From the NCBI GenBank assembly GCA_963717435.1, contig OY970332.1, positions 288,001-352,000 of the forward strand: a stretch of DNA of 64,000 bases, written 5' to 3'. Below the pieces are notes generated by a model. It saw only the letters and a list, made by a program, of their open reading frames with translations, was not told the origin of the DNA and did no database searches. This document shows positions 43,264 to 45,804 of this stretch, one piece after another. This DNA is from an uncultured bacterium. Its GTDB lineage: Bacteria; Babelota; Babeliae; Babelales; Babelaceae. A program made the position numbers and the translations under genes. The stretch's first letter is position 1, and every line of letters starts with the position of its first letter.

Positions 43264-43707
43264 ATGACTCAAAGTCAAAATCTAGAAAACAGCAAACATT
43301 CAAAGCGCGGCTTCTCGCTAATGGAACTTATTATAGCTATAACCATAATAGCTATTTTAACTGCGGGAACAATAGGCGTTGCTGTGAACTATGTGGCCCG
43401 CGCAAGAAAAAGTAATACTTATTCGGCATTGCAAGCTGCTCAAACCGGAATTGATGGTTATTATATGGACACGAGCCAGTATCCAACAACATTGAACGAC
43501 TTGCTTCAGGCGCCGTCAGATGCAAAAGTCTCCAAGAAATGGGCCGGACCTTATTGGCCGAAAAAAAATGTGCCGCAAGATGGTTGGGGCAACGAATTGG
43601 TTTATAAAGTTACCAAAGGTGCGCACCCATATGAATTATATTCTTGGGGTCCTAACGGAGAAGGTAGCGATGCAAAGGAACATATAAGTGTTTGGGAACT
43701 CGAGTAG
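43264..43707 (+). CDS. gspG: Major pseudopilin GspG
   Basis: KRG|FSLMELII; YP..L..L; W.GPY; P.DGWGN; LYSWGPNG. Confidence 0.9.
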   Translation: MTQSQNLENSKHSKRGFSLMELIIAITIIAILTAGTIGVAVNYVARARKSNTYSALQAAQTGIDGYYMDTSQYPTTLNDLLQAPSDAKVSKKWAGPYWPKKNVPQDGWGNELVYKVTKGAHPYELYSWGPNGEGSDAKEHISVWELE

Positions 43708-44329
43708 ATTTACTAAAAAACTCGACACCCCGCTCGCCCCGAGTGTTCTTCGTAGCCTTGGCGAAGAAGAATGTATCGAGGGGTCGGCGTTGAGTGTACG
43801 GGGATTTTCTCTAATAGAATTAGTTGTTGCCATCATGCTTATTGCAATGATGGCAACACTGGTTGTTCCAAGATTTGGCGGCAGAACATATAGGGCCGAG
43901 CGGGATAAATTTGTAAATAAATTTAATACGATGGTACAGTTGGCTTATCAAAATGCTTTATCAACCGGCAAACTGCACAGAGTGTTAATTGATATAGATA
44001 AAAAAAAGATAAAGTTAGAAATCGAATCTGGCAAAGATTCCCAAAATAATTATCAATTCGCGACTATAAATATTCCGTATGTAAAATCGGAACTAAATTT
44101 TGAAGATTTCGAAATCATAAATTTATACTTAAAAAAAGATGATAAGTTAACAGGGCGTGCGCGAACCAGAGAAGCCTGGTTCTTTATTTCACCGGGTGGA
44201 ATGGCCCAAGAAGTTACGCTAAATATTAGATATTTAAAAAATCCTGAAAATATTAATACAGATTTTGCGCTTGTTTTAAACCCTTTTACTGTGCAATTTA
44301 AAACATATGATGAATTTCAAAAGCCATAA
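43688..44329 (+). CDS. gspH: Minor pseudopilin GspH (alternative TTG start at 43790)
   Basis: RG|FSLIELVVAI; FF..PGG; directly after gspG. Confidence 0.8.
   Translation: MFGNSSRFTKKLDTPLAPSVLRSLGEEECIEGSALSVRGFSLIELVVAIMLIAMMATLVVPRFGGRTYRAERDKFVNKFNTMVQLAYQNALSTGKLHRVLIDIDKKKIKLEIESGKDSQNNYQFATINIPYVKSELNFEDFEIINLYLKKDDKLTGRARTREAWFFISPGGMAQEVTLNIRYLKNPENINTDFALVLNPFTVQFKTYDEFQKP
43730..43787. repeat. Structured palindromic repeat, copy 5 (reverse orientation), in frame in the gspH leader region
   Basis: CCG-CTCG-CCCC-GAGTG-[hairpin]-GTATCGA-GGGG-T-CGG; reads PLAPSVLRSLGEEECIEGS. Confidence 0.92.
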
Positions 44330-44744
44330 GAACTCCGGATTTTCTTTTATCGAAGTTTTAATATCACTAACCATTGTGGGAATCATGGTAGGAAGTCTTA
44401 TTGGTCTTAATGGCGCAATATTTAGAACCACTCGTAGCGCACATGACACTATAGAAAATAGTATTTTATTAAAAAATTTTTTATTACAATCTCGGCAAGA
44501 TGCTAAAGAAATTAAAGCTGGTAAAAAAATAGAAAAACAAATTGAAAATACTAAAACAAAATTAAGCTACAATATAGAAAAAATTAAAGAAAATTCTGTG
44601 ATTTCAAAGCAAAAGATCCCAACACAAAACTTGTTCTTAGAAAAAACTGAAATAGAGTGGGAAGCTGGATTTGGGGTAAAAAGAAAAGAGAGTATTATTA
44701 CTTTTGTTTTCAAGCAAGAAGAACAAAAAAATGAAAAAGTTTAA
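44307..44744 (+). CDS. gspI: Minor pseudopilin GspI-like
   Basis: SG|FSFIEVLISL; operon position. Confidence 0.75.
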   Translation: MMNFKSHKNSGFSFIEVLISLTIVGIMVGSLIGLNGAIFRTTRSAHDTIENSILLKNFLLQSRQDAKEIKAGKKIEKQIENTKTKLSYNIEKIKENSVISKQKIPTQNLFLEKTEIEWEAGFGVKRKESIITFVFKQEEQKNEKV

Positions 44745-45804
44745 GAATGCAAAAACGACCGACCCTTCGATACATTCTGCTTCGCCAAAGCTACGCAGAA
44801 CACTCAGGGCGAGCGGTCGCCTAAAATCACTTTTTGCAAAACCCGAGAATATTCTGAGTGATGCAAGTTTGGGCTTCACATTAATTGAAATAGTAATTGG
44901 AATCATGCTATCTTCGATTGTAAGTTTGGTGCTCTATAACATGCTAAATCAAACAACAAGAGTTGTTGAAAACGTAACTTCATACACAAATTTAGATAAC
45001 AAGATTGCCGTACTTTATAATCAAATTGATAAAACAATTTCTGCTGCCTTTTTGCCAAGAATAGAAGAAGTTAGAAGTACACTATCAACAGAAACTGTGA
45101 CAGTTATAAAGACAAATAAAACTGGAAAACCAGAAAACAAAGAAGAAAAAAAGCAGAAAGTCGAAAAAATATTTTATTCTGAAAACGACGGCGCAAATTT
45201 AAAGCTGCTTACATTTCTTTCAACAGGCGCAGTACGAGGCTACGATGAATCCGGTGGGAATATAACTCGCGTTGTTTATAGATTAGTAAAAGATGAACAA
45301 AATCCAGGTTTTTTTAAATTATTAATTCAGCAAAACTCTAAATTTTTAGATCTTGATATCTTAAAACCTGAAAATTCAAAAACGCGCAGCTATGAACTTG
45401 CAACAGGAATTAAATCTTTAAAAGCTGTATATTACGCAAGAGAAGAAAAACAAGAAGGCGAAAAAAATATAACAAGAACCAAGTTGCCCGACTGGGGTTC
45501 AAAAGAAATGCTAGAAAAATATAAACAAAAACTTCCAGAATTTGTTGACTTAAATGGAGTTATTTGGGACGACGTAAAAAAAAGAAATACTGAAATAAAG
45601 TTTAAATTTAATATTTATGGTTATGTAGCACCTGAGACTAATAAACCTAAAGAAGATAAAAACAAAGCGGTGCCTGCGGAACGTATACAACCATCTACCG
45701 GCAAGCAACCAGCAACACCAGCTCCTAAAATAACAGCCCAGCCTGACCCGAAGCTTGATGAAATTAAGAAAATCGCAGCAGATAATCCCAATATTTTTGG
45801 ATAA
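44731..45804 (+). CDS. gspJ: Minor pseudopilin GspJ-like with a 48-aa leader
   Basis: LG|FTLIEIVIGI; TRVVYRL; ATG overlaps the gspI end. Confidence 0.75.
   Translation: MKKFKNAKTTDPSIHSASPKLRRTLRASGRLKSLFAKPENILSDASLGFTLIEIVIGIMLSSIVSLVLYNMLNQTTRVVENVTSYTNLDNKIAVLYNQIDKTISAAFLPRIEEVRSTLSTETVTVIKTNKTGKPENKEEKKQKVEKIFYSENDGANLKLLTFLSTGAVRGYDESGGNITRVVYRLVKDEQNPGFFKLLIQQNSKFLDLDILKPENSKTRSYELATGIKSLKAVYYAREEKQEGEKNITRTKLPDWGSKEMLEKYKQKLPEFVDLNGVIWDDVKKRNTEIKFKFNIYGYVAPETNKPKEDKNKAVPAERIQPSTGKQPATPAPKITAQPDPKLDEIKKIAADNPNIFG
44756..44819. repeat. Structured palindromic repeat, copy 6 (forward orientation), in frame in the gspJ leader
   Basis: CGACCG-A-CCCT-TCGATAC-[hairpin]-CACTC-AGGG-CGAG-CGGTCG; reads TDPSIHSASPKLRRTLRASGR. 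Confidence 0.92.

Follow-up and report, generated by a model that had tools for sequence, protein, structure and literature searches.

We describe two insertions of a palindromic repeat at the leader-coding ends of minor pseudopilin genes in an uncultured bacterium. The window analyzed is a stretch of 64,000 nt from a genome assembled as a single contig (1,198,203 bp, 34.6% G+C, 88.8% complete as judged from marker genes; genome coordinates are window positions plus 288000), and homologues of its pseudopilins (for example, P0041) carry the source name Candidatus Dependentiae. One copy of the repeat lies in a GspH-like gene and another, in the opposite orientation, in a GspJ-like gene, each between the start codon that relatives use and the Gly-Phe site at which prepilin leaders are cut (Table 1). 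Alignments give good support to the view that both insertions are lineage-specific, lie in leader-coding DNA and are in frame. On balance, and judging from sequence comparisons, we favor the reading that the two copies entered the leader codons in frame and have been tolerated there because they would be removed together with the leader.

Read from GTG 43688, the GspH-like open reading frame (ORF) has 39 residues before the cleavage site, and read from ATG 44731 the GspJ-like ORF has 48; each of these leaders includes the peptide quoted for it in an earlier note on this DNA, and neither is interrupted by a stop. The repeat is absent from the closest relatives of both genes. In all seven GspH relatives aligned (up to 83% identical) there is a gap of 29 columns at the insertion, and their leaders comprise 8-11 residues starting MFG, MLG, MCG or MQT. 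The four most similar of them start with MFG, and the closest (83% identical) starts with MFGN, to which (V)FGN corresponds in the ORF here. For GspJ, a gap of 42-43 columns is present in both close relatives, P0005 (72% identical) and P0006 (60%), whose leaders are MKKLNG and MKRAG (6 and 5 residues, each followed by Phe); the ORF here begins MKKF, followed by approximately 42 extra residues. Leaders of 4-13 residues are found in all 18 of the more distant GspJ relatives listed.

The positions of the ancestral starts are also supported at the DNA level. The last 20 nt of gspG overlap the ancestral gspH start, and a gspH start inside the last gspG codons is found in two relatives as well (G009 and G038), with the same overlap of -20 nt in G009; in relatives' operons, starts that overlap by -1 to -25 nt are more frequent than any other arrangement. 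Similarly, the final 14 nt of the GspI-like gene overlap the gspJ start, and the context there, A-rich around the ATG, is common to G009; both the gspG-gspH overlap and the gspI-gspJ context are common to G009 and G038. The relatives' starts thus match GTG 43688 and ATG 44731, which lie upstream of the repeats, and both insertions are therefore inside leader-coding DNA, as the earlier note had supposed. In each of the two leaders the frame of the gene is the only open one of three.

The presence of the repeat in both leaders, in opposite orientations and upstream of the cleavage site, is borne out by the translations, by the copies that nhmmer recovers and by direct comparison of the two, which form inverted arms of 58 nt that are 91% complementary and 971 nt apart. 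That the insertions were independent events, as proposed earlier, agrees both with their orientations and with the finding that each copy resembles distant copies (95% and 94.8%) more closely than it resembles the other (91%). The sequences flanking the common part of both leader copies are unique in the genome by BLAST. Short direct repeats flank both copies, for example a motif of 6-9 nt that occurs three times around the gspJ copy, in a pattern that is inconsistent and ambiguous; more than one event may have taken place at the gspJ copy. We also note that the gspJ repeat core is separated from the Gly codon by 53 nt (window 44819-44871) that are unique in the genome and absent from relatives' leaders.

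Both proteins have the class III motif in their translations (Gly at -1, Phe at +1 and Glu at +5, followed by a hydrophobic helix). N_methyl matches begin at residue 38 in the GspH-like ORF and at residue 48 in the GspJ-like ORF, and TIGR02532 scores 21.1 and 17.3 bits on them, above its cut-off of 16.3 bits. The two genes belong to a block at 41985-46889 that consists of a gspF-like gene (Pfam T2SSF, 7e-57), a gspG-type major pseudopilin gene and four further genes, three of which carry the prepilin N-methylation motif. The IV_pilin_GFxxxE domain exceeds its cut-off in the GspH-like ORF. The gene-specific NCBIfam models do not: TIGR01710 reaches 79.2 bits on the gspG-type ORF (cut-off 88.85 bits), TIGR01708 (gspH) reaches 34.2 bits on the GspH-like ORF (2.4e-8; equivalog cut-off 80) and TIGR01711 reaches 16.2 bits on the GspJ-like ORF (equivalog cut-off 64.85). 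Because these matches are below cut-off, we write 'GspH-like' and 'GspJ-like' and name the genes by their order after gspF and gspG; the identities given earlier draw on gene order together with these matches, and the curated cut-offs do not confirm them.

The repeat belongs to a family with 114 non-overlapping copies in the genome (iterated nhmmer over 1,198,203 bp). The E value is below 1e-5 for 103 copies; 58 copies lie on the plus strand and 56 on the minus strand, and many form close inverted pairs. It is a GC-rich imperfect palindrome (GC 0.52-0.57, compared with about 0.2-0.35 in adjacent windows), the stretch common to copies being approximately 58-64 nt and the inserts approximately 72-90 nt. 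A 26-nt pattern drawn from the two leader copies matches four times in the window and not once in 100 shuffles. Among 96 aligned full copies, double changes preserve the inner stem, one pair being C-G in 49 copies and U-A in 44, so that the palindrome is a feature that the family maintains. The gspH copy is predicted to fold at -31.1 kcal/mol (z -2.7) and the gspJ copy at -21.7 kcal/mol (z -2.2). The consensus is open in four of the six frames, and the 96 full copies have a mean of 3.98 open frames of six, against 2.15 for random 64-mers of the genome, so an open frame through a copy is not rare and proves little alone.

Outside this genome, 11 of the 40 relatives searched by BLAST contain related copies, in a patchy distribution (G018 has 21 matches, G040 has 12 and G037 has 9), and nhmmer finds copies in seven of the nine loci of relatives that were scanned (L051-L059). 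Rfam contains no family that matches the repeat (two chance-level matches, neither at repeats), and full-text literature searches retrieved no paper describing these repeats in Dependentiae; in a search of the Chromulinavorax paper by terms, ankyrin repeats are the only repeats mentioned.

We next consider copies inside genes, using a greedy map of long ORFs (1199 ORFs covering 89% of the genome), which is not a curated annotation and in which the small ORFs of 70-80 residues that hold copies are probably spurious. Of the 103 copies at E<1e-5, 61 lie outside ORFs and 42 overlap them, 37 wholly within, and these 37 sit in 29 ORFs that have 100 residues or more. Of 20 host ORFs scanned, 14 have Pfam domains that extend across the copy or flank it on both sides (MnmG, MnmE, RecR, GpsA, a SpoU methylase, transketolase, AsnB, LeuRS with two copies, two Mur ligases, MiaA, a nucleotidyl transferase, a GT4 glycosyltransferase and a heparinase-like protein), and the other six have a domain on one side only. 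In MnmG the copy corresponds to a 24-residue insert that is absent in all seven aligned relatives, and in eight of 11 matching relatives the alignment is split into two pieces that flank residues 145-171. Copies within genes are read in several frames; one of these has a stop in the consensus, and in the genic copies that use it the stop is mutated away. Because copies occur in frame in housekeeping genes and, in MnmG, the copy is absent from relatives, the family behaves like the Rickettsia palindromic elements (RPEs), the precedent cited in the earlier note, which proves apt. As a separate observation, residues ~66-80 of P0007, a GspJ-like protein on another contig (33% identical), resemble repeat-encoded peptides in two frames, and its homologue P0008 lacks this stretch, which may derive from an in-frame copy, now degraded, that was inserted elsewhere in the gene in a separate lineage of Dependentiae.

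Which start codons are used bears directly on whether the long leaders are made. For gspJ, the only in-frame ATG, GTG or TTG downstream of the repeat and before the cleavage site is TTG 44869, which would leave a leader of two residues, and none of the 18 GspJ relatives has a leader of fewer than four; ATT 44851 and CTG 44854 would give leaders that have no basic residue and are acidic or neutral. The statement that gspJ has no start comparable to the gspH alternative is thus correct. As gspJ has no other credible start, its leader of 48 residues is probably made and subsequently cut off by the A24 prepilin peptidase; we think it likely, from the sequence context, that translation begins at ATG 44731 and yields a pre-protein with a strongly basic leader (11 Lys/Arg versus 3 Asp/Glu), a composition that fits a cytoplasmic leader.

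For gspH, the alternative start that had been pointed out is indeed present: the segment 43778..43792 (plus strand) comprises a Shine-Dalgarno-like GAGGGG, supplied by the repeat, and, with the motif 6 nt upstream of it, TTG 43790, from which the leader would have five residues. GTG 43688 (with AGGA) and TTG 43790 score alike for their Shine-Dalgarno motifs, each at spacing 8. The ancestral GTG is in the correct phase, opens an uninterrupted frame and has the typical overlap with gspG; the TTG has a leader of normal length, and the ancestral ATG has become GTG. In the minimum-energy fold the 3' arm of the hairpin contains both the TTG and its Shine-Dalgarno motif, with the TTG and part of the motif paired, so initiation there would probably need ribosomes arriving from upstream to open the stem. 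From sequence alone the choice between the 39-residue leader and the repeat-supplied start appears evenly balanced; the mature GspH-like protein is identical by either.

A candidate enzyme for leader removal is encoded elsewhere in the genome, where a 255-residue ORF (genome 779880-780647, minus strand) matches Peptidase_A24 (PF01478) at 64.7 bits, above cut-off. Two adjacent copies of the repeat (genome 780654-780779) fill the spacer directly upstream of this gene. Class III leaders vary in length, stay in the cytoplasm and are cut after Gly or Ala, according to a review (PMC10191384). A strict motif scan identifies five prepilin-type genes in the genome, two of which have a copy in the leader, and this fraction exceeds three placement nulls (P of 8e-5 when copies are placed uniformly over the genome, 0.0067 under the per-gene null and 8e-4 under the null for the initial 150 nt of ORFs). 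The genome-wide enrichment in cleavable leaders that had been anticipated is therefore to be taken as suggestive only, since the test is post hoc and counts two events.

The mechanism that we propose runs as follows. A non-autonomous GC-rich imperfect palindrome would multiply in this Candidatus Dependentiae genome, its copies surviving where they do no harm, either in intergenic DNA or in frame within tolerant surface loops and linkers. Two separate copies would have entered the few codons between the start and the Gly-Phe site of the GspH-like and GspJ-like genes with the frame kept. Were the class III leader to stay cytoplasmic and be cut off by prepilin peptidase, the mature pseudopilins would be unchanged, and the insertions would be tolerated for that reason. 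Translation of the long leaders, their cleavage and the neutrality of the insertions are what we infer in this account. The description of the leaders as a safe haven stands insofar as the insertions are in frame in leader-coding DNA and an A24 gene is present; for gspH it is weakened by a downstream start that is as plausible as the upstream one.

Several observations count against this account. The openness of the repeat in about four of six frames makes chance read-through possible, and such read-through does occur in this genome: an ORF at genome 866812-870069 (minus strand) runs through two copies within 66 codons of its beginning, ahead of an internal Met that is followed by a signal-peptide-like stretch, and is likely an example of over-extension through repeats and a useful negative control. 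We estimate, roughly, that an unselected insertion would stay in phase and open with a chance of 0.1-0.2 per gene, and the frame argument alone is therefore weak for gspH, for which TTG 43790 with GAGGGG makes a textbook alternative start and where the ancestral start, ATG in G009 and G038, is GTG here. A motif scan found no Shine-Dalgarno-like motif at any candidate start of gspJ. For the first codons of gspH and gspJ, conservation is confounded by their overlap with the 3' ends of gspG and gspI. Most REPs (repetitive extragenic palindromes) in annotated N-termini are regarded as misannotated and extragenic (PMC3733652). The enrichment, as said, is post hoc. Finally, reads contributed no empty-site allele: in short contigs from four runs (of 15 runs with small shares, at most 0.19 of sampled words, and with no RNA run among those listed), all sequence is identical to parts of the window, including one contig (X3, 43495-43750) that runs from gspG into the first repeat. 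A metagenome scan for closer GspJ loci gave 388 pattern matches, none of which was confirmed.

Much of this would be explained if the copies were untranslated intercistronic hairpins, with initiation moved to TTG 43790 in gspH and to TTG 44869 or the non-canonical ATT 44851 or CTG 44854 in gspJ, and the long frames were products of chance and of gene-caller extension. The open frames of the repeat, the over-extended ORF, the good spacing at TTG 43790, the published caution on N-terminal REPs and the intergenic location of 61 of the 103 copies all favor it. We nevertheless judge it unlikely: the gspJ starts that it needs give a two-residue leader with no Shine-Dalgarno motif or acidic or neutral leaders, the gspH start is paired together with part of its motif in the predicted fold, and both insertions are in phase with ancestral starts conserved in position, in the only open frame of three. 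The hairpins may instead be kept as useful RNA, with a stem after gspG that protects the upstream mRNA, or attenuates or couples translation so that fewer minor than major pseudopilins are made, coding being incidental. REP hairpins can stabilize upstream mRNA, and the stable folds, the compensatory changes across the family, the first hairpin starting 13 nt past the gspG stop and pairing the TTG start, and the two copies just upstream of the peptidase gene are consistent with such a role. Against it, the closest relatives do without the repeats, the element occurs in many unrelated genes, as fits selfish spread, and our scan found no hairpin spanning a repeat and followed by the T-run of a terminator (there is a small 6-pair stem at 43731-43745 within the first copy, and the region has five terminator-like sites versus 3.5 in shuffles and 14 promoter-like sites versus 17, that is, shuffle level); we consider this explanation more doubtful still.

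Two further possibilities have little in their favor. The insertions may have disabled, or be disabling, gspH or gspJ or both as part of a decay of genes in a reduced parasite genome; a small genome, dependence on a host and the start of gspH with GTG rather than ATG would fit this, yet both mature regions are full length and free of stops, with 83% and 72% identity to relatives, and the gspF-K block and the peptidase are intact, which makes decay very improbable. Hardly credible at all is the idea that the two inverted copies, with their 58-nt, 91% complementary arms 971 nt apart, are the ends of an invertible or composite segment carrying gspH and gspI. Relatives have the genes in the same order, the read contigs contain no joints, each copy resembles distant copies more than it does its neighbor, and with more than 100 copies in both orientations, neighboring copies will be inverted half the time. 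A bolder extension of the in-frame leader insertions, which we think improbable, would make class III leaders landing pads for selfish palindromes, since prepilin peptidase would take the repeat-encoded residues off the protein, and would have functional minor pseudopilins made with repeat-encoded leaders of 39 and 48 residues. The hairpins would have been co-opted as well, with the gspG-proximal one masking the gspH start and Shine-Dalgarno motif, such that synthesis of minor pseudopilins would depend on ribosomes arriving from gspG and the ratio of major to minor pseudopilins would be set in this way.

Among known systems, the closest in behavior are the RPEs, palindromic repeats found in frame within conserved genes, N-terminal insertions included (Ogata et al. 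2000, as summarized in PMC10969869 and PMC3733652). Both are dispersed, multi-copy stem-loop repeats with no transposase of their own, in reduced intracellular bacteria, and here too the inserts, of approximately 20-30 residues, lie in frame in intact housekeeping and metabolic genes and are absent at the same site in orthologues, as seen in MnmG. The differences are that Dependentiae are not Alphaproteobacteria and that the core here is approximately 64 bp, compared with roughly 100-150 bp for RPEs; in the literature that we found, no RPE is reported in a cleaved prepilin leader. By analogy we take the repeat to work like an RPE, likened by behavior and not by sequence, and do not file it as a member of RPE-1 to RPE-10. 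The GTAG/CGTC REPs (Di Nocera et al. 2013; PMC3733652) are likewise short GC-rich hairpins that are mostly intergenic, often form inverted dimers and are sometimes in frame in known genes, with N-terminal copies that are coding or misannotated. Their units measure 20-40 bp and carry a tag at the end, and RAYT transposases accompany those of the GTAG type; the element here is a single palindrome of approximately 64 bp with no terminal GTAG tag (GTAG occurs in the loop region of some copies, and CGTC internally in the consensus). A search for the Y1 (RAYT-type) transposase PF01797 gave no match in this single-contig genome of 88.8% completeness, although the control search matched six of 14 genomes, and we rejected the REP/RAYT reading for this reason, unit length and terminal tag also disagreeing.

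Miniature inverted-repeat transposable elements with in-frame fusions (ERIC/RU, BOX and Correia; PMC10969869 and PMC3184786) resemble the present family as small non-autonomous repeats whose open frames fuse with host ORFs or that supply expression signals, as GAGGGG might here; they differ in that we could define no terminal inverted repeats with a target-site duplication in this family, whose whole element is palindromic, and in that the search for insertion sequences, which covered PF01797, identified no parent element. Long class III leaders are known from type IVb and some type IVa pilins, again hydrophilic, cytoplasmic, variable in length and cleaved off by an aspartic peptidase of the A24 type behind a Gly or Ala that is invariant (PMC10191384). 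Those leaders are traits of their families, whereas the long leaders here stem from recent insertion of a mobile element, relatives' leaders having 4-13 residues.

Table 1. Coordinates of the pseudopilin genes, their leader-coding segments and copies of the repeat (window positions unless marked as genome)
Feature	Position	Strand	Basis
gspG-type major pseudopilin	43264..43707	+	Pfam T2SSG 9.8e-18 plus N_methyl
GspH-like minor pseudopilin ORF, from ancestral start (GTG here)	43688..44329	+	translation, IV_pilin_GFxxxE domain, relatives' N-termini
gspH leader-coding segment, 39 codons to Gly-1, ~27-29 of them insertion	43688..43804	+	alignment, frame check
Leader copy in gspH	43713..43793 (nhmmer envelope; common part ~43725-43791)	+	nhmmer E 1.6e-21, BLAST bounds
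GspI-like minor pseudopilin, 11-residue leader, no repeat	44307..44744	+	N_methyl; weak PilV/gspI matches, below cut-off
GspJ-like minor pseudopilin ORF, from ancestral ATG	44731..45804	+	translation; identity to P0005, P0006
gspJ leader-coding segment, 48 codons to Gly-1, ~42 extra versus closest relatives	44731..44874	+	alignment, frame check
Leader copy in gspJ	44751..44833 (nhmmer envelope; common part ~44757-44818)	-	nhmmer E 2.1e-18, BLAST bounds
GspK-like ORF closing the pseudopilin block, no repeat	45810..46889	+	weak NF037980 match 0.0011, below cut-off
Further window copy	1757-1845	-	nhmmer
Further window copy	3254-3328	+	nhmmer
Further window copy	12549..12625	+	nhmmer; pattern and repeat scans
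Further window copy	59590-59657	+	nhmmer
Copy in RecR	genome 105797-105861		nhmmer, Pfam
Copy in MnmG	genome 283584-283647		nhmmer, Pfam
Copy in MnmE	genome 469608-469704		nhmmer, Pfam
Two copies in LeuRS	genome 634700-634888		nhmmer, Pfam

The window holds other repeats as well. A second, smaller family of GC-rich palindromes is present at 3360-3435 and 61203-61239, with seven BLAST matches in the genome, one of them a 76-nt copy at genome 1135416 with 97% identity. The stretches 61314-61380 and 63684-63750, 2.4 kb apart, form a direct repeat of 67 nt (96% identical) that has no other copy in the genome. Three tandem units of 54 nt at 39914-40075, within the ORF at 39796-40779 (plus strand), encode a Cys-rich motif repeat in a Cys-rich protein that looks secreted.

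The kind of element described here is already known, being RPE-like or like an intragenic REP; the family, the phylum and the location in a cleaved leader are new instances of that kind. For annotation, comparing start contexts with those of relatives can separate true N-terminal insertions from ORFs over-extended through repeats. The two leader insertions are a concrete example of cleaved N-terminal segments being permissive to insertion, and they provide a natural experiment on the load of length and sequence that substrates of prepilin peptidase can carry. In-frame selfish palindromes are best known from Rickettsia, and Dependentiae are an unrelated phylum of intracellular parasites; the patchy occurrence of copies among relatives suggests convergent tolerance of such elements in reduced genomes.

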